In this document: positions 5,935-22,316 of the stretch, one piece after another
How the letters are laid out: each line of letters begins with the position of its first letter
Numbering within the stretch: the first letter of the stretch is position 1
Source: a virus
Lineage: Duplodnaviria > Caudoviricetes
Strand: one strand, 5' to 3'
Length of the DNA stretch: 64,000 nucleotides
Virus record (IMG/VR): IMGVR_UViG_3300025413_001239
The notes under the pieces: model-generated
Seen by the model: the letters and a program-made list of their open reading frames with translations, nothing else
What the model was told of the DNA's origin: nothing
The model's database searches: none
Position numbers and translations under genes: made by a program

Positions 5935-6005
5935 GGTTCTATAGCTCAACGGCAGAGCTGGACTCTCTAAAAGTCTTGATGTTGGTTCGATTCCGACTAG
6001 AATCA
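5935..6005 (+). tRNA. Amber suppressor tRNA (anticodon CUA)
   Basis: Full cloverleaf: GGTTCTA/TAGAATC acceptor, GCTC/GAGC D stem, GGACT-CTCTAAA-AGTCT anticodon arm (CTA at 5967-5969), GTTGG-TTCGATT-CCGAC T arm, A73; own promoter at ~5900. Confidence 0.9.
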
Positions 6006-6053
6006 CACTTTACATTTTTTAACAATTATTGTATATTTATAAAAAAAAGAAAT

Positions 6054-14128: not shown

Positions 14129-15271
14129 ATGATAGATAAAATTGGTATTAGATATACGTTTAAGATTTCGGTACCACTAGATGTTTTAAAGATAAAAGAA
14201 GTTTTTACTAAGAATGGTCATCAACTATTTCTAGTTGGTGGTTGTATTCGTGATACCATATTAAATGTAACACCTAAAGATTTTGATTTAGTTACAAATG
14301 TTTCGCCAGAAGAGGTTATTAGAATTTTAAAGCATGAAAAGTTTGTTACAACAATATTAGAAACTGGAAAATCATTTGGTGTTATTAATGTTATAACTAG
14401 CGATAATGAATTTGAAATTGCTACGATGCGCAATGATGTGTTTAGTGATACACCAAATGGGAGGCATCCAGACCGTGTTATCTTTGGTGATATTTTTACT
14501 GATTGTATGCGAAGGGATTATACCATGAATGCGCTTTTTTATGACTTAGATACTAATGAAATAATTGACTTCGTTAATGGTGTTAATGATATTGAAAAAT
14601 CTTTAATTAAGGCGGTTGGGAATCCAGAAGAAAGATTTAAAGAAGATAAATTACGCAAACTTAGGGGCGTTAGGCTGGCGGCCAGATTTGGCTCTGAATT
14701 GGACCCTGAGATTGATGCCGCATTAAAAAGAGATGCCAGTCTGGAAGGTATATCTGGTGAAAGAATCAGAGATGAGTTTATAAAGGGTATCAAATCAGCT
14801 AAGTCAGTTGTTAAATTCTTGGAAATGCTTGATAGGTATCATTTATTTAATTGGATATTTAAGGGCTTACATGTAAATAAAGACTTTATTGAGGATAGAA
14901 ATGTTGTAGTTCTTATTGCTATTTTATTAAAGGGTAACAACATAGGTGTTATAGCTAAGCAATTGAACAATCTTAAGTATTCTGTTGATGAGATTAAATC
15001 AATCACATTCTTATTGAGTTTATTGCATTTAACACCTGAGACAGCAGTTGCTTTAAAGAGACAACAAAAGAACGCTTACACATCAAATCATCAAATAATT
15101 GATTTTGCTAACCGTGAAGGTTTAAATACAAGATTGATACATGCGTTTTTAAATTTTGAGTTGACCGTTACTGGCGAAGAAGTTATGCAAAAGTTCAATT
15201 TGAAGCAAGGCAAAGAGTTAGGTGATATGATAAATAAATTGGAATTGGATAATTTTAAAAAAAGTTTGTAA
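14129..15271 (+). CDS. cca: CCA-adding tRNA nucleotidyltransferase / poly(A) polymerase family
   Basis: LVGGCIRD, KDFDLVT, RRDYTMNAL, EDKLRKLRGVR, ERIRDE; tRNA genes in the window lack encoded CCA. Confidence 0.9.
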   Translation: MIDKIGIRYTFKISVPLDVLKIKEVFTKNGHQLFLVGGCIRDTILNVTPKDFDLVTNVSPEEVIRILKHEKFVTTILETGKSFGVINVITSDNEFEIATMRNDVFSDTPNGRHPDRVIFGDIFTDCMRRDYTMNALFYDLDTNEIIDFVNGVNDIEKSLIKAVGNPEERFKEDKLRKLRGVRLAARFGSELDPEIDAALKRDASLEGISGERIRDEFIKGIKSAKSVVKFLEMLDRYHLFNWIFKGLHVNKDFIEDRNVVVLIAILLKGNNIGVIAKQLNNLKYSVDEIKSITFLLSLLHLTPETAVALKRQQKNAYTSNHQIIDFANREGLNTRLIHAFLNFELTVTGEEVMQKFNLKQGKELGDMINKLELDNFKKSL

Positions 15272-15345
15272 AAAAGTTGTTTATTCAAAATAAGTTCGTA
15301 TATTTGCATTATAATTATAATTTTTAAATTTAAAAAGGTAAAAAG

Positions 15346-15570
15346 ATGAAGACAATCACGTTAGAACCGAGTACTAACACTCACACAATGACAGATGTTT
15401 TGGAATCAACAGCAATTGATACAAGCATCCTTAAGTTAAAAACAAACAAAAAGAGCAAGGTGGTTCACGGCGAACACGGCACTTTGGGTATCGAAAGCGA
15501 ACACGTAATCAAATACGTTCAGCAAGAACTTAACCCGATTACCAAGAAGTTGCAAAACGCTTGGGACTAA
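15346..15570 (+). CDS. Conserved small phage protein (paralog of 58956)
   Basis: HGEH..QQELNP..WD pattern. Confidence 0.6.
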   Translation: MKTITLEPSTNTHTMTDVLESTAIDTSILKLKTNKKSKVVHGEHGTLGIESEHVIKYVQQELNPITKKLQNAWD

Positions 15571-15696
15571 AAAATTTAGAAAAGAGAAAGCCAAAAACTT
15601 TCTCTTTTTTATTTTAAAAAAAAATTTGTTCGTTTCAAAAAAAGCTGTATATTTGCATTCTAAATAATTTATTAATAATTAAAAAAAAAAAAGACA

Positions 15697-16455
15697 ATGA
15701 AATTAATTTGGAGAGAGTTTAATTTTAATTCAGTTTATTACGACACTGAAAAAAAAGAAATGGTTAGTTGTACAACAGCTGAATTTCTTAGGTACTTAAA
15801 GGGTGTTTATACCAATAAGGAGCGATTCATTAATCGTTTCATTGATAGGCACAAAGCAACAATGGTAGAATATGACTTGAAGGGTCATAGTGAGCCAGAT
15901 TACAATATCTGCATTGAGTTCTTTGATAAGTTGGTAGCTGATTACGATGCTGCGAAACCATTCACTTTCAAGGAATCATTCGAGTTGGAAAACAAAGAGT
16001 TTCAAGCATTGGTATTCTCTTCAATTGATATTACCGATATGATTTCTCAATTGGGTGCTAAGAGAATTAAGACTGATGGTATTGAGTTGGACCAAAATAT
16101 CTATGATGATGATGGTAACCTTCTTGGTAAAGAAAAGAGGTCTAATATCTACGAGGTTCACGAAGTTGATGGTGAGAAATTGGGCTTGGAAGAAAAGTTG
16201 TATGTTGTTAAGTGCTGGTGTACAACAACAGATAAGGAACATTGGTTGTGGATTGATGATAAATACAAAGACGACCCATTAACAGCGATTGCCTCAACGT
16301 TCATGGTGCACGAAAATGTTATCCCACATATTAAGTGCTTAAAAAGACAAGGTGATGTTCTTTTGGCTGAAATGACTAAGGAAGTTACACCTGAGGGTGA
16401 GATTGTTTCTTTGACAAAAGACCAATACTTCTCTTTGTTAGCAGCACAAGCTTAA
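15697..16455 (+). CDS. Conserved phage protein, DUF6745-like C-terminus (paralog of 60528)
   Basis: CWCTTTDKEHWLW..AIASTF..RQGD..Y..LL.AQA. Confidence 0.55.
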   Translation: MKLIWREFNFNSVYYDTEKKEMVSCTTAEFLRYLKGVYTNKERFINRFIDRHKATMVEYDLKGHSEPDYNICIEFFDKLVADYDAAKPFTFKESFELENKEFQALVFSSIDITDMISQLGAKRIKTDGIELDQNIYDDDGNLLGKEKRSNIYEVHEVDGEKLGLEEKLYVVKCWCTTTDKEHWLWIDDKYKDDPLTAIASTFMVHENVIPHIKCLKRQGDVLLAEMTKEVTPEGEIVSLTKDQYFSLLAAQA

Positions 16456-16511
16456 AGTTTATTTTTTAATTTATAAAGGAGAGGGCAACCTCTCTTTTTT
16501 ATTATAACTAT

Positions 16512-16820
16512 ATGAATCAATTAAACGAAAAAAGTCAACCACATGGCTTATGGGTTGAATATTATAAAGACGGTAAAATACGTAGTGAGCATAATTGGTT
16601 AAATAGTGACCGACATGGTGTTTGTAAGGACTATCATGAAAATGGTGTCCTGTTTATTGATGCTGTGTATAAAAATGGCAAAAGAGTTACTTGGTCTAGA
16701 TATTTCGAAAATGGTAGTCTAGAAGTCTTTGAGCTTTATGATAAAATGGGTTTATGTTATATGAAATTTTTTAATCACAGTGGTGATATAAACCAACGTT
16801 TTCATCGTTTTTTACTTTAA
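16512..16820 (+). CDS. MORN-variant/YwqK-like repeat protein
   Basis: MNQLNEKSQPHGLWVEYYKDG..HG..YHENG repeats. Confidence 0.8.
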   Translation: MNQLNEKSQPHGLWVEYYKDGKIRSEHNWLNSDRHGVCKDYHENGVLFIDAVYKNGKRVTWSRYFENGSLEVFELYDKMGLCYMKFFNHSGDINQRFHRFLL

Positions 16821-16855
16821 CATTATTTGCATATATTTATTAGAAAAATAAATAT

Positions 16856-17206
16856 ATGGCAAAATATCTTGTAATTTTTAGTGATAATCACGGTGAAGAA
16901 TTTGATGTTAATGGCTTTAGACTTATGACTGAAAAAGAAGCTGATAAGTTTGAGGATTTAGCGAATAACATTAATTTTGAATTTCATTATTACGCAAACT
17001 CAGAGTCTTTATCTTATTCAAATGGTGAAGACTTCTTATCCAGAATTGAATTTAAGCAAGTATCTAACGAAGAGTACGAAAAACTTGATAAGTTATTTGG
17101 TGGTCAATTTGGAATCTTTATTGGTGAAGAGTACTTAAATATGGTTCTTAAAGGTGAATCAGATGATAACGATGAAGAAAACGATGATTATAATGACAAT
17201 TGGTGA
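16856..17206 (+). CDS. Acidic hypothetical protein
   Basis: ORF behind ATATTTATT motif. Confidence 0.6.
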   Translation: MAKYLVIFSDNHGEEFDVNGFRLMTEKEADKFEDLANNINFEFHYYANSESLSYSNGEDFLSRIEFKQVSNEEYEKLDKLFGGQFGIFIGEEYLNMVLKGESDDNDEENDDYNDNW

Positions 17207-17275
17207 AAAACTTTAAAAAAGATTTGTCTAATTCAAAATAACCACGTATATTTGCACTTCAAATAGCTAATAAAG

Positions 17276-18568
17276 ATGAAGTGTATTAAAACAAGGAAAA
17301 TTCAGTTGTTGCCATTAGGTGATTTTAATGAAACCTACAAATACGTTAATAATTTAAGTTCAGGCTTAGCGTCACTCGGTAATGAAATGATAAGGAGACA
17401 TGTTTTATCATTTTATGAAATGGACGTACTAAAAGATTCAACTCCAGATGCTAAAACTAGAACTAATCTAATGAAGGAAAAATACGGAATGTCACTCCAA
17501 AATATGGGTTATGATGTTTCAAAAAAGTATTCAGCCACAATTCCTTCGAATATTCGCACAACATTTAATCAAAAGGTCTTTAAAAAAATAAAAGACAGTT
17601 ATTTTGGTATTTCAATAAATAAAGAATCTATACCATCATTCAGAAAAGACTCAATGGCAATTCCATTTAGTTATGATAATAATATCAGTTTGAACGAATT
17701 TGGGGTGTATGATTTTAAATTCTTTAATAATGTCAATTTTAAATTAAACTTTGGACGTGATAGGTCTAATAATAAAGTTATCATTGACAGAATTTTATCT
17801 AATGAATATAAGCCATTATCTTCACATATAAAAATTGATAAGAAAAAAATATTCTTAGATTTAACATATTCTTTTGACTCAGATGAAAATGTTAACATAT
17901 CTAAAGATAAAATTGTTGGTGTTGATTTAGGTATAAATAGACCTATGACAATTGCTAGGGAAGATGGTACTTATGCAAAACAAATAGAAATCGGTGGTAA
18001 GATTCAATACTCTAGATTATCAATTCAAAAACAAAGAAGAAGCTTACAAAGTGCTTTAAGGCATTCATCTGGTGGTCATGGTACTGGTAAAAAAATAGCT
18101 AAATTAAAATCATTAAAAGATTATGAACATAATTTCATGAAAACCACTAATGATACACTAAGTCGTGAATTAATAAAATATTGCGTTAATGAAGGTGTTG
18201 GTGTAATTAAATTAGAAAATCTAACTGGTATAACAGAAAATGCTAATAATTTTCTTAAGTCTTGGTCTTATTATCAATTACAACAAATGATTGAGTATAA
18301 AGCTGCTGAATTTGGAATTACAGTATTATATGTTAATCCTAGATATACCTCTCAAACTTGTCCAACTTGTGGCAATATTGATAAAACTCAAAGAGATTCA
18401 AAGGATAAAACAAAATTTGCTTGTTCAAATGAAATTTGTTCTGATATTAATATAAATAAAGATGCTGATATTATTGGTGCCTTTAATATCTCAAAAAGAG
18501 ATGGTGTTATCGCTTCTAAAAAAATATTACAAGAAAAAAGTGATAAAAAGTTGTTAGTTTCAGAATAA
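17276..18568 (+). CDS. Compact type V CRISPR effector (Cas12f/TnpB-like, 430 aa)
   Basis: RuvC triad GVDLG, IKLENL, KDADIIGAFNI; Zn finger CPTC..CSNEIC; KTRKIQL N-terminus; immediately upstream of anti-repeat and CRISPR array. Confidence 0.85.
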   Translation: MKCIKTRKIQLLPLGDFNETYKYVNNLSSGLASLGNEMIRRHVLSFYEMDVLKDSTPDAKTRTNLMKEKYGMSLQNMGYDVSKKYSATIPSNIRTTFNQKVFKKIKDSYFGISINKESIPSFRKDSMAIPFSYDNNISLNEFGVYDFKFFNNVNFKLNFGRDRSNNKVIIDRILSNEYKPLSSHIKIDKKKIFLDLTYSFDSDENVNISKDKIVGVDLGINRPMTIAREDGTYAKQIEIGGKIQYSRLSIQKQRRSLQSALRHSSGGHGTGKKIAKLKSLKDYEHNFMKTTNDTLSRELIKYCVNEGVGVIKLENLTGITENANNFLKSWSYYQLQQMIEYKAAEFGITVLYVNPRYTSQTCPTCGNIDKTQRDSKDKTKFACSNEICSDININKDADIIGAFNISKRDGVIASKKILQEKSDKKLLVSE

Positions 18569-18589
18569 GTTCGTATATTTGCATAAATA

Positions 18590-18751
18590 AAAAAAGTTCT
18601 TTTACATATTGAGCCTAACGGCTGGGCTGGTTGTTCAGCCTTAAGGTGAATCCACGAATAAACGTGGTGATACTCTAGAGTATTGGAGGAAACTCACTCA
18701 CCAAATACCTTTAAATATAGGGTTTATAATGTCGTTAATGGTATAAACAAT
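18590..18751 (+). ncRNA. Putative tracrRNA
   Basis: Own promoter TATATTTG 18574-18581; hairpins GGCTG-GTTGTT-CAGCC and CCACG-AATAAA-CGTGG; anti-repeat ATACCTTTAAATATAGGGT 18705-18723. Confidence 0.75.
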
Positions 18752-18769
18752 TAAGAAATGCGCTATTCA

Positions 18770-19398
18770 GGTGTTAATGACCCTAATTTGAAAGGTATAA
18801 ACAACTAACGCTTGCAATGCAGTTCAGGTAGTGTTGGTGTTAATGACCCTAATTTGAAAGGTATAAACAACAGTATTATATAATTGTTGTTGCATTTGAT
18901 GGTGTTAATGACCCTAATTTGAAAGGTATAAACAACAGAGGTGTTCTAGCTTGACTTCACTAATATGGTGTTAATGACCCTAATTTGAAAGGTATAAACA
19001 ACGGACTGGCATCGTTAATGGTTGCTGGTCACGGTGTTAATGACCCTAATTTGAAAGGTATAAACAACAAAACTTTAATAGACCACTCTTAGGGTCTAGG
19101 TGTTAATAACCCTAATTTGAAAGGTATAAACAACCATAATATTATTTTTAATTCACCGCAATGTGGTGTTAATGACCCTAATTTGAAAGGTATAAACAAC
19201 GGGTTGAGTTAACTGGTCTGTTATTGTCATGGTGTTAATGACCCTAATTTGAAAGGTATAAACAACGAAACTGAACGTTTACTAAAAGACAAAGAAGGTG
19301 TTAATGACCCTAATTTGAAAGGTATAAACAACGAGACTGAACATTTACTAAAAGACAAGGAAGGTGTTAATGACCCTAATTTGAAAGGTATAAACAAC
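18770..19398 (+). CRISPR. CRISPR array, 10 repeats of 36 nt, 9 spacers of 29-30 nt
   Basis: Repeat GGTGTTAATGACCCTAATTTGAAAGGTATAAACAAC at 18770, 18836, 18901, 18967, 19033, 19099 (one G>A), 19165, 19231, 19297, 19363. Confidence 0.98.
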
Positions 19399-19559
19399 TT
19401 CGTCACTCAGGTACGTATTTAATTTTTTTTAAAGTTTTTAGTGAAAAAACTTGACAATTCAAAATAAGTTTGTATATTTGCATTGTAATTAAAAAATTTT
19501 ACACTTTTTAAAAAAGTGACATATTTATAACAAAAGGGAAACCCATAAACAAAAAGATA

Positions 19560-19643
19560 ATGATAAACGTTAACAACATATTTAATTTTAATTTTGAAGC
19601 AGCTGAGGCAGATTTTAGCCATCAGAGGGTTGAGGTATTGTAG
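19560..19643 (+). promoter_or_regulatory. Putative 27-aa leader peptide ending in TAG
   Basis: MINVNNIFNFNFEAAEADFSHQRVEVL*; lies between promoters and a terminator preceding the tRNA cluster. Confidence 0.45.
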
Positions 19644-19673
19644 TTAACGAATCGAAAGAAACATATTAAACGA

Positions 19674-19703
19674 AAGCCCTTAACCAAAAGTTAAGGGTTT
19701 TTT
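19674..19703 (+). terminator. Intrinsic terminator upstream of tRNA cluster
   Basis: AAGCCCTTAAC-CAAAA-GTTAAGGGTTT plus T run. Confidence 0.75.
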
Positions 19704-19712
19704 ATTTATATT

Positions 19713-19783
19713 CGAGGTGTAGTTTAGTGGTAAAATGCCGCACTGTCTATGCGGTGTCACGATTTCGATTATCGTCATCTCGG
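19713..19783 (+). tRNA. tRNA-Asp(GUC)
   Basis: CGAGGTG/CATCTCG acceptor, CCGCA-CTGTCTA-TGCGG, ACGAT-TTCGATT-ATCGT, G73. Confidence 0.85.
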
Positions 19784-19785
19784 CA

Positions 19786-19870
19786 CGGAAAAAATTCCTA
19801 GGGATAGGAACTATCTTGATAAAGATAAGTACTGCACGAATCATAATAAGTTCGAATCTTAATTTTCCGC
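19786..19870 (+). pseudogene. Degenerate tRNA-like element (6-nt loop TGATAA, long variable region)
   Basis: CGGAAAA/TTTTCCG, TTCC/GGAA D stem, TATCT/AGATA stem, TAAG-TTCGAAT-CTTA T arm. Confidence 0.5.
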
Positions 19871-19910
19871 AACGGAGAATCACAACTCTAAAAAAAATGT
19901 GAAACTGGAG

Positions 19911-19983
19911 GGGGGGTCATGTACCAAGGCTGGCGAGAAATACTTGCAATATTTCTGGAAGATTTCAATTATCTTACTCTCCA
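19911..19983 (+). tRNA. tRNA-Ala(UGC), atypical D arm
   Basis: Loop CT-TGC-AA in AAATA/TATTT stem; G3.U70 and A73 alanine identity elements; AAGAT-TTCAATT-ATCTT T arm. Confidence 0.7.
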
Positions 19984-20046
19984 CAGGTGTCACTGATATA
20001 CTGACCGAGCATGGGGATTAGTAATAATCCCTAGTATATCTAATAA

Positions 20047-20121
20047 GGTGCCGTAGCTGAGATGGTTTAGCGGTTGGTTGAAGCCCAGCGACTTACAAGG
20101 GTTCGATTCCCTTCGGTACCA
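20047..20121 (+). tRNA. tRNA-Phe(GAA)
   Basis: GGTGCCG/CGGTACC, GTTGG-TTGAAGC-CCAGC, AAGGG-TTCGATT-CCCTT. Confidence 0.85.
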
Positions 20122-20178
20122 GATAGTCAATGTTAATCCACCTGCACGTTGGTGATTATCGCACACTAGGAATAGTGA

Positions 20179-20583
20179 CTAAGTGATTAACAAAGTTCTT
20201 TGATTTATGATATTAGCAATAATATCAAGAAATTTTTTAGATGTATTTATTTTGAATTTTTGTTGAAATGATGTATCAATAATACATAAATCAATTTTAT
20301 TTTCAATACATGATTTAAATTTATTCTGGTCATTTATTTGTGTCTGGTTTAATTTATTAATACCGAAAATCGGTTCATAATGAAATATTCCATTCAATTC
20401 AAATGCTAAATTAAGTGACGGAATGTAGATGTCTAATTCAGAACCGATTGCATCCTTCTTATTATAGTCTATTTGTAGATTAGGGTAAAGAATTGTTAAT
20501 TGTTCTTCAAGATATATTTCGAGTTTAGAGCGTCTTGTGCCAGTTGTTTTATGTTTATTATAATTGTGAGTAAATTGAATAAA
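20179..20583 (-). pseudogene. N-terminally truncated PD-(D/E)xK (Vsr-like) homing endonuclease
   Basis: RSKLE..ELDIYIPSLNLAFELNGIFHY; no ATG between tRNA-Glu and the conserved part. Confidence 0.6.
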
Positions 20584-20586
20584 AAT

Positions 20587-20672
20587 GCTATGGTCGACTA
20601 GTGGCTCAGGTCGCATCCCTTTCAAGGATGTGGGGAGAAATCCCCTCACGGGTTCGAATCCCGTCCATAGTA
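20587..20672 (+). tRNA. tRNA-Glu(UUC) with long variable arm
   Basis: GCTATGG/CCATAGT, CATCC-CTTTCAA-GGATG, extra GGGGA-GAAA-TCCCC stem, ACGGG-TTCGAAT-CCCGT. Confidence 0.85.
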
Positions 20673-20994
20673 CAAATGTTTTAGTTATGATTAAGCGAAC
20701 AATTAGTGGTAGTTTTACTAATATGGTAAAACCTGACCCAAGTGTTATGAAAGATAGTGATTTTGATTTGTTATCGTTCTGATAGAACACTGGTTGTATT
20801 CACAATATGTAAGAGCGCATATACCAATTGCTGCTTTATGGGACAGAAAAGTTGAGGGGAAAGTTCGATTCTTTCGAAGGACACATTATTAACAAGTTAA
20901 AAAAAATGAGCGCAATGAAACAGCTGGACGCAATGTCACCAATCAGATAAGAGAAGAAAGAAAGGTTCTGATTGGTACGAGACAAACACGAAAA

Positions 20995-21387
20995 TTGAAG
21001 AAATATTCTGATAACTTCAATACAATTTTTACTTTCTTTCTAAAGTCTTATAGGAGTGGTATATTAACATTTAGTGGTGTTGATGTTCCTGTTCATTATG
21101 ACATAAATGGTCCTGAGGGTAAATTCACATTCCGAAAATTTGAGAATGGTGATTACGTTAAGGACATTATTACTTCATGTCACCCAAATATTATTAAGGG
21201 TGTAATAATTGCAAAAAAAAGTTGGGGGTTACACATAAAATTATGGAGCGAAGGTATTGCTGATTGGTGCTTTACCGAAGAAGAAATCCTGAAGCAATTC
21301 AGCGATAAGGGTATTCTTATTCCTGAACCTCTTTTAAACGACTTCAAGAATCACGTAAATAAGGCTAAACAAAAAAGATATGAATAA
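20995..21387 (+). CDS. Hypothetical protein (start uncertain)
   Basis: ORF track; TTG start. Confidence 0.55.
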   Translation: MKKYSDNFNTIFTFFLKSYRSGILTFSGVDVPVHYDINGPEGKFTFRKFENGDYVKDIITSCHPNIIKGVIIAKKSWGLHIKLWSEGIADWCFTEEEILKQFSDKGILIPEPLLNDFKNHVNKAKQKRYE

Positions 21388-21438
21388 TATTTGGTAATAT
21401 CAAATAAAATCGTATATTTGCACTCTAAATTATAACAC

Positions 21439-21684
21439 ATGAAATTAATACACATTGTTGAAACGATTGATGAAAAAGTATCATCAATATTGTCTTTTCC
21501 TGTTAAGGATGAATCAAAAGAAAAAGAAGTTGAAGAAGAAGTAAACGCTAAGTTTATTGAACTTATCAATCAATTTCAGTACCCAGCAACACTATCAGAG
21601 GATAGTGAAAAGCACTGGATACAACAAAAAATCTATCATCATAAAAATCATCTTCGTTTAGAAATCTCTTCATCACAAATATAA
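21439..21684 (+). CDS. Hypothetical protein
   Basis: ORF after promoter. Confidence 0.6.
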   Translation: MKLIHIVETIDEKVSSILSFPVKDESKEKEVEEEVNAKFIELINQFQYPATLSEDSEKHWIQQKIYHHKNHLRLEISSSQI

Positions 21685-21694
21685 ATTATAAAAT

Positions 21695-22258
21695 ATGATA
21701 CATACAATTGCCCATTTATTAGGTATTAAACTTGAAGGTTCTGAGTGTTCCGCCGAGATTGAAAAGAAAGTTGTTGAACAACTGGAGAAAGTTCCTTACA
21801 TTCAATACCCGACAGCTTTCCATACGGTAGACATCATTGCTACTCGTCAAGGTGAATCTGGTTTTGAATTGCTATTAGGTCGTAAACACAAATCCACTGA
21901 ATGGGTTTTCATTGGTGGTTTTGTTGAACCAAAACAAACAGCTGAAAGTGCTGCCTTGCGTGAATTACACGAAAAAACTAATATCCTTATCGAGAATGAA
22001 TCAAGACTGGTTTATTTAGGTTCTCATTTCATTGATGATGCAAGATACAAGGATTCTTGTCATAAGATTTCAACCAGCCTATTTACAATTCAATTAACCG
22101 ATGAAGAAGCTGCGCAAGCTAAAGGTGGTGACGATATTTCAGAAACCAAATGGCTTAAATTGGGTGAAATTGAAGTTAACTTAAAAGAACATCATAGAGT
22201 TTTGCTTTATAAGTTTTTAATTAGTACTTCAAAATGGCATCATTCACATAATCTTTAA
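21695..22258 (+). CDS. Nudix hydrolase (NadM-associated ADP-ribose pyrophosphatase-like)
   Basis: YPTAFHTVD, GGFVEPKQTAESAALRELHEKT Nudix box, GGDD..W. Confidence 0.8.
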   Translation: MIHTIAHLLGIKLEGSECSAEIEKKVVEQLEKVPYIQYPTAFHTVDIIATRQGESGFELLLGRKHKSTEWVFIGGFVEPKQTAESAALRELHEKTNILIENESRLVYLGSHFIDDARYKDSCHKISTSLFTIQLTDEEAAQAKGGDDISETKWLKLGEIEVNLKEHHRVLLYKFLISTSKWHHSHNL

Positions 22259-22316
22259 AAAAAAGATTTGTTAGTTCCAAATTAATTCGTATATTTGTAT
22301 TCTAAAAAAAAAAATT

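Follow-up and report, generated by a model that had tools for sequence, protein, structure and literature searches.

A shortened CRISPR repeat and putative guide fused to the tracrRNA of a phage-borne Cas12f locus

The window analysed here, that is, the whole 64-kb stretch taken from a giant lake phage of ~343 kb, carries a cas12f-like gene followed by a predicted tracrRNA and a CRISPR array, with a short repeat-derived piece and a spacer-like segment lodged between the two. The features of the locus are the following:

17276-18568, + strand: cas12f-like effector gene, 430 aa, with an intact RuvC triad (D217/E314/D398) and an intact four-Cys zinc finger
18551-18581, + strand: promoter of the Bacteroidota type, TTG and then the -7 box TATATTTG (18574-18581), overlapping the last cas12f codons
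18596-18607, + strand: conserved 5' motif GTTCTTTTACAT at the head of the predicted tracrRNA-array transcript, 14 nt after the -7 box
18612-18623, + strand: stem 1 of the tracrRNA, AGCC/GGCT
18625-18640, + strand: pseudoknot hairpin (R:AR-1), with stem GGCTG (18625-18629)/CAGCC (18636-18640) and loop GTTGTT (18630-18635)
18645-18702, + strand: scaffold core, closed by GGTGA (18645-18649)/TCACC (18698-18702), with compensatory changes in relatives
18652-18667, + strand: inner hairpin CCACG/CGTGG, enclosed by the GGTGA/TCACC stem beside two variable hairpins
18705-18723, + strand: long gapped anti-repeat (R:AR-2), ATACCTTTAAATATAGGGT
18740-18751, + strand: shortened repeat, GGTAT plus the tail AACAAT, able to pair with ATACC (18705-18709) and with the loop GTTGTT, the last pair being G-U
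18752-18769, + strand: fused guide ("guide 0"), spacer-like, 18 nt (19 if T18751 is counted), unique in the window
18770-19398, + strand: CRISPR array with ten 36-nt repeats and nine spacers (29-30 nt), none of which follows the last repeat

Effectors of type V-F are TnpB-derived proteins of ~400-700 aa that combine a RuvC D-E-D triad with a zinc-finger (TNB) insert, and Cas12f acts as a homodimer on one guide RNA, cleaving double-stranded DNA in a PAM-dependent manner. The 430-aa protein of the window matched the Pfam families Cas12f1-like_TNB (6e-19) and OrfB_IS605 (3e-9), with PF07282 and PF01385 above their cut-offs, as well as the NCBIfam family guided_TnpB (RNA-guided TnpB family; 2.5e-50), and its nearest solved structures were the "Cas12f" entries 9nzo/9nzr (1e-51) and AsCas12f (7wju/8j12; 1e-41). 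The NCBIfam Cas12f2 model reached 85.9 bits, below its 450-bit cut-off, and the effector was thus assigned to the Cas12f1-like branch rather than to Cas12f2. Judged from its sequence, the effector nests within the Cas12f family and is not a TnpB. The catalytic residues D217, E314 and D398 and the four zinc-finger cysteines are kept in the effector and in all clade members checked, and with this RuvC site intact the product of 17276-18568 is predicted to be nuclease-competent.

The setting of the gene is that of a phage, although at the DNA level the window matched nothing in the phage collection. The protein is present on contigs of up to 343 kb, its neighbours are phage genes and tRNAs, and its cellular relatives belong to Bacteroidota, e.g., Alistipes, Prevotella/Segatella and Bacteroides. 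Neither cas1, cas2 nor cas4 was found near the effector locus, and no rpoE gene adjoins the effector. The genes called in the identical locus L004 include no transposase family, and no element ends lie beside the gene.

The promoter at the end of cas12f is one of seven copies of a 63-nt promoter-like repeat family found between 15 and 23 kb in the window. A consensus scan for promoters matched at 18551-18579; the window's repeated motif, TTG ... TAnnTTTG, is of the Bacteroidota type, and a matching motif lies upstream of the tracrRNA in relatives too. The conserved RNA of the window begins 28 nt past the stop codon, the ORF being overlapped by the promoter only, and the array starts 202 nt downstream of the cas12f stop codon. 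As neither a promoter nor a terminator was predicted in the tracrRNA-array interval, a single transcript that spans tracrRNA and array would be the simplest reading. Among the viral contigs of IMG/VR, no exact protospacer was found for spacers 4 and 7 or, using a degenerate pattern, for spacers 8/9, and a PAM could consequently not be inferred.

Ahead of CRISPR arrays, boxA serves as an early signal on the array transcript and binds NusB-NusE. The first-pass annotation, which was made from the letters of the window, had placed a boxA-like sequence at the start of the transcript, and the sequence that it meant, GTTCTTTTACAT, is indeed present at 18596-18607. Its GTTCTT is invariant in the five closest loci despite a spacing to the -7 box that varies from 7 to 47 nt. 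GTTCTT also occurs in gut Bacteroidota relatives and, in L171, once per tracrRNA-array module, while the internal tandem scaffolds of L041-L045 are without it. This distribution suits a signal for the whole transcript, for which a boxA-like role is possible, but it would equally fit the 5'-NTTC motif with which Cas12f tracrRNAs start (bioRxiv 10.1101/2023.02.03.527072). A head-to-toe stem has been proposed for SpCas12f1 (PMC12255294), and GTTCTT would suit such a stem too.

Relatives of the effector were gathered from viral contigs, metagenomes, genomes and assemblies, and an RNA core motif was found downstream of the gene in most of them; Rfam had no family for the tracrRNA region. The structure that we scored comprised the hairpin stem, the loop:tail pseudoknot, the GGTGA/TCACC stem, the inner hairpin and the cis ATACC:GGTAT helix. 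Across an alignment of 36 related units, 98.1% of its pair cells held standard pairs and 12 pairs showed double changes. None of 500 shuffles was as good, and sliding the 3' partner by 1-3 columns left 23-48% of the cells paired. Taken helix by helix, pairing in the hairpin stem was preserved throughout (100%), and each of its 3 counted pairs showed double changes; the loop:tail helix was 97.7% paired, with double changes at 2 pairs; helices 3 and 4 were 99.4% and 95.0% paired, with compensatory changes; and the cis helix was 99.4% paired, a figure in which cis and trans pairing are not separable by covariation, since shortened repeat and array repeats share one sequence. Stem 1 is represented in relatives by differing hairpin sequences at the same place (GACTT/AAGTC in L020, GATA/TATC in L005 and GGCT/AGTC in L001), and a variable hairpin shows a compensatory change from ATAC..GTAT in the window to ATGC..GCAT in L173.

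The loop GTTGTT is the exact complement of AACAAC, the last six bases of the 36-nt repeat, as had been read at first pass, and loop and repeat tail co-vary among loci: GTTGTA:TACAAC in most, GTTGTT:AACAAC in the window, L018 and L173, GTTGGA:TCCAAC in L058, and GTTGTG:CACAAC in L118. On this co-variation the loop:tail pseudoknot is real, and it is an already known, ordinary feature of Cas12f. A pseudoknot formed by short repeat:anti-repeat pairing (R:AR-1) is known in the guide RNAs of Cas12b/f/g/l (PMC11246509; PMC12255294; bioRxiv 10.1101/2025.01.20.633832), and a pseudoknot with the 3' end of the repeat has been termed characteristic of Cas12 tracrRNAs (bioRxiv 10.1101/2025.01.20.633832). 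Guide RNAs of Cas12f have long and short repeat:anti-repeat pairings with a pseudoknot (PMC11246509, PMC12255294), and stem 1, pseudoknot and stem 2 are common to Un1, As, Cn and Sp Cas12f (PMC12255294). The gapped anti-repeat at 18705-18723, likewise recognised at first pass, was confirmed: it complements bases 11-29 of the repeat with a predicted duplex energy of -19.3 kcal/mol, and in L173 anti-repeat and repeat have changed together.

Between the anti-repeat and the array, the earlier reading had noted a truncated repeat at 18740-18750 (GGTATAAACAA). It is present, and its match to the 3' end of the repeat in fact extends to 12 nt, 18740-18751 (GGTATAAACAAT), the sole change being the last base, C to T. 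By chance, 0.74 12-mers matching with at most one mismatch would be expected over the window as a whole, yet this one sits in the 46-nt gap between anti-repeat and array, and chance is therefore not its explanation. The cis pairing that had been suggested for it is possible: ATACC can pair with GGTAT (18740-18744), and the local minimum-energy fold of 18698-18751 is this very hairpin, at -5.3 kcal/mol. The minimum-energy fold of the whole tracrRNA region does not show the cis hairpin. The shortened repeat offered in trans gave -6.9 kcal/mol, and repeat 1, which lies 18 nt downstream of the shortened repeat, could on these predicted energies displace the weak cis pairing (-19.3 vs -5.3 kcal/mol).

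The same arrangement recurs in relatives. In 40 distinct units, the anti-repeat is followed by a short variable linker and then by the last 12-21 nt of the locus's own repeat. A covariance model, R1, built from the fused units yielded 79 units in 81 loci and exactly one match in the window (18623-18751, 82.9 bits, E 1e-13). In the Cas12f tree, an aquatic, largely phage-like clade (34 rows, SH-aLRT 99) holds 26 fused, 2 canonical and 6 unclassified rows. Its sister group consists of gut Bacteroidota Cas12f, including the published uCas type, with repeats ending ATATCCAAC and an ordinary layout in which ~40-60 nt separate the tracrRNA from the first full repeat. Intermediate forms are graded, from a full first repeat abutting the tracrRNA (L007, L171, L015a) through a 16-21-nt piece to a 12-nt piece. 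As L007 and L171, which have the full first repeat, are clade members, and a few others (e.g., L036) have an ordinary pre-array gap, truncation is not obligatory. At the other extreme, L019b has a stand-alone fused unit, and L042 and L044 have four tandem units, each tandem unit in relatives carrying a different guide. On this comparative evidence, the fused shortened repeat and guide that the first-pass annotation had seen before a true array is a real, conserved and clade-wide variant of Cas12f guide architecture.

Could the piece nevertheless be the decayed end of an array, i.e., an eroded oldest repeat-spacer unit or a part of the leader that has no function, with the tracrRNA processed away from it and acting in trans only? 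The copy in the window would lend itself to such an account, given that its guide is short (18 nt), its tail has gone from C to T and its cis pairing is weak compared with that of full repeats; moreover, clade arrays such as those of L013 and L016 hold further 5'-shortened repeats. Erosion should be random, however, and yet loci with no more than 40-60% identity between their Cas12f proteins retain the same 12 nt, with the adjoining linker varying freely while the two tracrRNA-contacting pieces persist. The repeat piece also follows lineage-specific changes of loop and repeat tail, reading AACAAC in L018/L173, TCCAAC in L058 and TTACAGC in L050; the T of the window's tail, with its G-U pair, recurs in 9 of the 36 units. 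In addition, stand-alone or tandem units of scaffold plus guide exist without long repeats (L019b, L041-L045, L042/L044). A repeat piece that is nearly invariant next to a free linker, with tails that match each lineage, argues for selection rather than erosion, and we regard decay as an unlikely explanation.

What follows the shortened repeat behaves like a spacer. The segment before repeat 1 had been given as 19 nt; it measures 18 nt and reaches 19 only with T18751 included. In 18 of ~24 fused units that adjoin full arrays, the corresponding segment is 28-32 nt long, and in L015 and L016 the fused guides are of 19-20 nt. In the nearest relative with DNA, L173 (81% protein identity), the tracrRNA is nearly the same as in the window and the repeat piece, GAAAGGTATAAACAAC, is free of changes; it is followed by a 30-nt guide unrelated to the 18 nt of the window, and the fused guides of L009 and L010 differ although their Cas12f proteins are identical. 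Given the unrelated guide in L173 and these differences from locus to locus, the segment is by comparison a spacer and not a fixed regulatory guide. The window's own unit is, relative to L173, a shortened derivative, with a guide 12 nt shorter and the C-to-T change in the tail, which together could mark decay of this copy; for this phage the point is accordingly a modest one, since the fused guide is a shortened copy whose activity is uncertain.

A short regulatory guide was the alternative that the first-pass annotation had put forward for this segment. Spelled out along the lines of tracr-L, such a guide would bind without cutting at one fixed site (the promoter of the locus, for instance, or some gene of phage or host) and so tune expression. 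Its length would allow this, as would the 19-20-nt guides of L015 and L016, and natural single guides of 11-16 nt act so for Cas9 (tracr-L, vsgRNA; bioRxiv 10.64898/2026.06.01.729453) and for dCas12f (PMC13472631). The searches point the other way. Guide 0 has no second site in the 64-kb window of the ~343-kb phage, where its best match is 13/18, no partial target was detected there, and the longest match to its 5' end is 8 nt (9 counting T18751), the like of which shuffled guides also give. None of 19 fused guides, from the window and 18 relatives, has a 5'-seed match of at least 8 nt in its own locus. The guide is not kept in L173, where a 30-nt guide of normal length stands in its place despite 81% protein identity, and the nuclease triad is intact. 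Taken together, these results speak against the regulatory proposal, which we consider very improbable. The target search for the 18-mer, extended to IMG/VR viral contigs, likewise gave no target: two exact matches (L087 and L088) stand against a rough chance expectation of one to two, and their 5' flanks differ (CTGA/TGAT versus GTTA in the window), so that as candidate targets they were uninformative.

A further possibility is that the shortened repeat merely occupies the loop and the start of the anti-repeat as a placeholder in cis, chaperoning the tracrRNA or holding it inactive, with the segment behind it being incidental. The wide gap between the cis (-5 to -7 kcal/mol) and trans (-19 kcal/mol) energies is compatible with such a role, and gut relatives have a GTTGGAA...TTCCAAC hairpin between tracrRNA and array that likewise mimics the loop:tail pairing. 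This would leave unexplained, however, both the spacer length (28-32 nt) and spacer-like turnover of the following segment and the different guides in each tandem unit, and we hold it to be very improbable.

In IS200/IS605 elements, tnpB lies with transposon ends and often with TnpA, the DNA next to the right end serves as the guide, and the scaffold reaches into the 3' part of the ORF. The first-pass annotation had raised the idea of an omegaRNA-like tracr-guide fusion retained next to a true array, as a TnpB-to-Cas12 intermediate. In its full form, this reading makes the fused unit an ancestral relic, the original omegaRNA-like guide of a TranC-like transition, with the array acquired later. 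The layout is indeed that of an omegaRNA, with a single RNA in which a scaffold and a guide-adjacent pseudoknot precede a 3' guide. As with omegaRNAs, the scaffold of the L009/L015/L016/L017/L019 group begins within the ORF, ~55-60 nt from its 3' end, whereas in the window it does not overlap the ORF. The stand-alone unit of L019b and the fused state of L058, a long-branch basal row of the tree, are in keeping with such an origin, and TranC systems that use both RNA types have been published (Jin et al., Cell 2025, as cited in PMC13565253). To the extent described there and in bioRxiv 10.64898/2026.03.27.714800, TranC resembles the present case in the coexistence of fused guide and array, here known from DNA.

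Against a relic stands the protein, which, unlike TnpB and TranC, is a Cas12f-clade member nested in that family, with canonical-tracrRNA gut Bacteroidota as its sister group. The other basal row, L078, is canonical, and the tree does not settle the root state. Where TnpB takes flanking DNA as its guide, the guide here is a rapidly changing segment of spacer length behind a fragment of the CRISPR repeat of the same locus, and neither transposon ends nor TnpA or another transposase lie beside the gene in the window. The graded forms, some of which have a complete first repeat directly against the tracrRNA, would suit a secondary collapse at least as well. A retained TnpB-to-Cas12 intermediate was thus not borne out, and we judge it quite unlikely. 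From the same comparisons we moderately favour a later collapse over retention of an ancestral omegaRNA.

The interpretation that we prefer, and consider fairly probable, is that 18596-18769 encodes the tracrRNA, with a guide fused to it, of a nuclease-competent type V-F system borne by the phage, the fusion having arisen, probably, by collapse of a repeat-spacer unit. A single phage promoter (18551-18581) would give rise to one transcript comprising the tracrRNA, the fused first guide and the 9-spacer array. As covariation shows, the RNA folds as a Cas12f scaffold, with stem 1, the pseudoknot hairpin and the GGUGA/UCACC-closed core; its 19-nt gapped anti-repeat pairs with the middle of the crRNA repeat, and the loop GUUGUU pairs with the last six repeat bases beside the spacer to form the pseudoknot. 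Of the full repeat, the shortened one keeps just the parts in contact with the tracrRNA, namely GGUAU and the AACAA(U) tail, with an 18-nt spacer remnant after them. By means of ATACC:GGTAT and the loop:tail pseudoknot, the primary transcript may fold back on itself into a natural single guide, which could load Cas12f with guide 0 without annealing in trans. The full repeats, with pairing ~3 times stronger, would compete for the anti-repeat and supply the other nine guides. Under this scheme, the first repeat-spacer unit would have collapsed onto the tracrRNA, rather than a transposon omegaRNA having been kept.

The locus is close to those of type V-F1 (Un1Cas12f1, AsCas12f1, SpCas12f1 and CnCas12f1, and the gut uCas/Alistipes systems). 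It shares with them an effector of ~430 aa with RuvC triad and zinc finger, a tracrRNA between gene and array, and a long anti-repeat combined with a short, pseudoknot-forming one; as in uCas, the repeats are of 36 nt and cas1/2/4 are missing (bioRxiv 10.1101/2023.02.03.527072). Unlike here, the described type V-F1 systems are dual-RNA, and their single guides are man-made, engineered Cas12f sgRNAs joining these same parts by an artificial loop (bioRxiv 10.1101/2023.02.03.527072). In the window and most of the aquatic clade, by comparison, the first guide is joined genomically, via a 12-21-nt repeat remnant.

Chimeric single guides do occur in the Cas12f lineage (PMC13472631). They are used by nuclease-dead Cas12f of Bacteroidota, for which the dual guide was proposed to have "collapsed again", with repeat-spacer units as the source of the resulting single RNA (Hoffmann et al., Nature 2026, PMC13472631), and "omegaRNA-like arrays" were noted by Altae-Tran et al. 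(PNAS 2023), as cited in PMC13472631. The dCas12f-sigmaE systems are of the same protein lineage and host phylum, and have a scaffold with a 3' guide downstream of the gene, sometimes in tandem; they have lost the RuvC site, mostly lack arrays, carry 14-16-nt guides and activate transcription through a sigma factor (PMC13472631). In the present clade, by contrast, the triad is intact throughout, no rpoE adjoins the gene, a 19-nt anti-repeat is available for pairing in trans, a true array follows, the fused guides are mostly of 28-32 nt and the loci are phage-borne. By analogy, the clade fits as the nuclease-intact stage of the collapse proposed for Bacteroidota dCas12f. A search for the R1 scaffold, run under strict filters on a sample of 150 other genomes from the family to which G001 belongs (the genome with L089, titled as a Flavobacteriaceae MAG), returned none, and a link to the published dCas12f guide scaffolds was thus not made.

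Natural tracrRNA fusions with a repeat-like piece and a short guide are also known from type II systems, as tracr-L and viral sgRNAs (Workman et al., Cell 2021; bioRxiv 10.64898/2026.06.01.729453). There, the effector is Cas9, and the 11-14-nt guide of tracr-L is conserved and aimed at the cas9 promoter, whereas the guide here is not conserved and no self-target was detected in the window or 18 related loci. In the searchable literature, we found no description of a nuclease-active Cas12f with this fused architecture, and a full-text search for Cas12f together with a natural single guide returned nothing.

Taken further, the comparison leads to a tentative proposal, to which we give somewhat less than even confidence: a clade of nuclease-active, phage-borne Cas12f may stand midway between dual- and single-RNA guidance, with a tracrRNA that is fused to a privileged first guide and still serves the array in trans. 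If this is true, the clade would provide the missing nuclease-competent intermediates of the chimeric-guide collapse seen in dCas12f, and some of its members would have gone further, to tandem, complete sgRNA genes of ~90 nt and 13-nt mini-repeats, offering ready-made minimal natural sgRNA scaffolds. The passage from omegaRNA to split tracrRNA and crRNA and, in some lineages, back to single guides is an active question (TranC, Cell 2025; dCas12f, Nature 2026), and the clade would present both guidance modes on one predicted transcript behind an intact nuclease, making the transition directly testable. The bases kept upon joining in cis, namely 5 bp of the long duplex and the 6-nt pseudoknot tail, may likewise be useful in the design of minimal Cas12f guides.

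A minor observation concerns the linker between anti-repeat and shortened repeat. There, GTCGTTAATG (18732-18741) might be taken for the start of a repeat that has lost its interior, but L173 and, partly, L050 share a similar linker (TGTCGTTA in L173), so that the sequence, if a repeat remnant, would be an old one, indistinguishable from a conserved linker.

Tandem fused units, in which a tracrRNA scaffold is joined in cis to a shortened repeat and its own guide, were found in several of the related Cas12f loci gathered for comparison (L-numbers; coordinates within each locus), each time downstream of a cas12f gene with an intact RuvC catalytic triad:

L042:2011-3262, tandem fused units
L044:2581-3834, tandem fused units

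The same layout recurs in L038-L040, L041, L043, L045, L047, L048, L051 and L089. Each locus in this group carries 2-4 complete scaffold copies 3' of a cas12f with the triad preserved, every copy measuring 89-98 nt, with the pseudoknot hairpin at one end and the repeat tail at the other, and being joined to its own guide. The mini-repeats that follow each scaffold copy are just 13-14 nt (TAGTATATACAAC), with spacers of 17-30 nt, and none of these tandem loci contains 36-nt repeats. Their habitat is taken to be marine.

In another arrangement, shared by L009, L015, L016, L017 and L019, two guide modules surround a single cas12f gene:

L015:1978-2440 and L015:3857-4060, the two modules

The upstream module of such loci is a 6-repeat array directly abutted by the tracrRNA. 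The downstream scaffold starts ~60 nt inside the 3' end of the cas12f open reading frame, with a repeat piece of 12 nt and a guide of 19-32 nt fused to it. The downstream fused unit of L019 stands on its own, without an array.

Promoter-like sequences were found both in the window and within fused guides:

window 15263-22316, promoter-like element of ~63 nt, 7 copies
L026:2066-2095 and L052:2187-2216, fused guides containing the Bacteroidota -7 promoter motif (TATATTTGCA, CATATTTG)

The window element consists of TTG, ~19 nt and then TATATTTGCA, and its copies precede successive small genes, cas12f, the tracrRNA and the tRNA block, which fits a Bacteroidota host. The motif-bearing guides may be aimed at the promoters of a rival element, or may provide an internal promoter for the array.

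Two observations concern array ends:

L171:2810-4284, three successive modules, each GTTCTTTGA, tracrRNA and array
window 19363-19440, spacer-less last repeat, then a T-rich run

Each of the three L171 arrays is closed by a partial repeat: in place of the 3' half stand a hairpin (CCCCAATTTGGTGGGG) and an A/T-rich run, which may act as a terminator and also keep the guide-less last repeat from use. The last repeat of the window would yield a guide of non-spacer sequence unless stopped by transcription or processing; a further phage promoter copy lies beyond the T-rich run, at 19451-19478.

Three further features were recorded:

window 19267-19362, near-identical spacers 8 and 9
window 5935-6006, tRNA with anticodon CTA (amber suppressor), labelled tRNA-Pyl by ARAGORN
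L106:3735-3770, hairpin GTTGGAA...TTCCAAC between tracrRNA and first repeat

Spacers 8 and 9 differ at 3 of 30 positions and are therefore adjacent variants of one target; a degenerate-pattern search of viral contigs returned no match to them. The tRNA suggests TAG read-through or recoding in the window phage. The hairpin, also present in L095, L096, L109, L111 and L116 (all, like L106, gut Alistipes/Rikenellaceae Cas12f loci), has one arm that repeats the sequence of the pseudoknot loop and another that repeats that of the repeat tail; it could imitate the pseudoknot pairing or compete with it.
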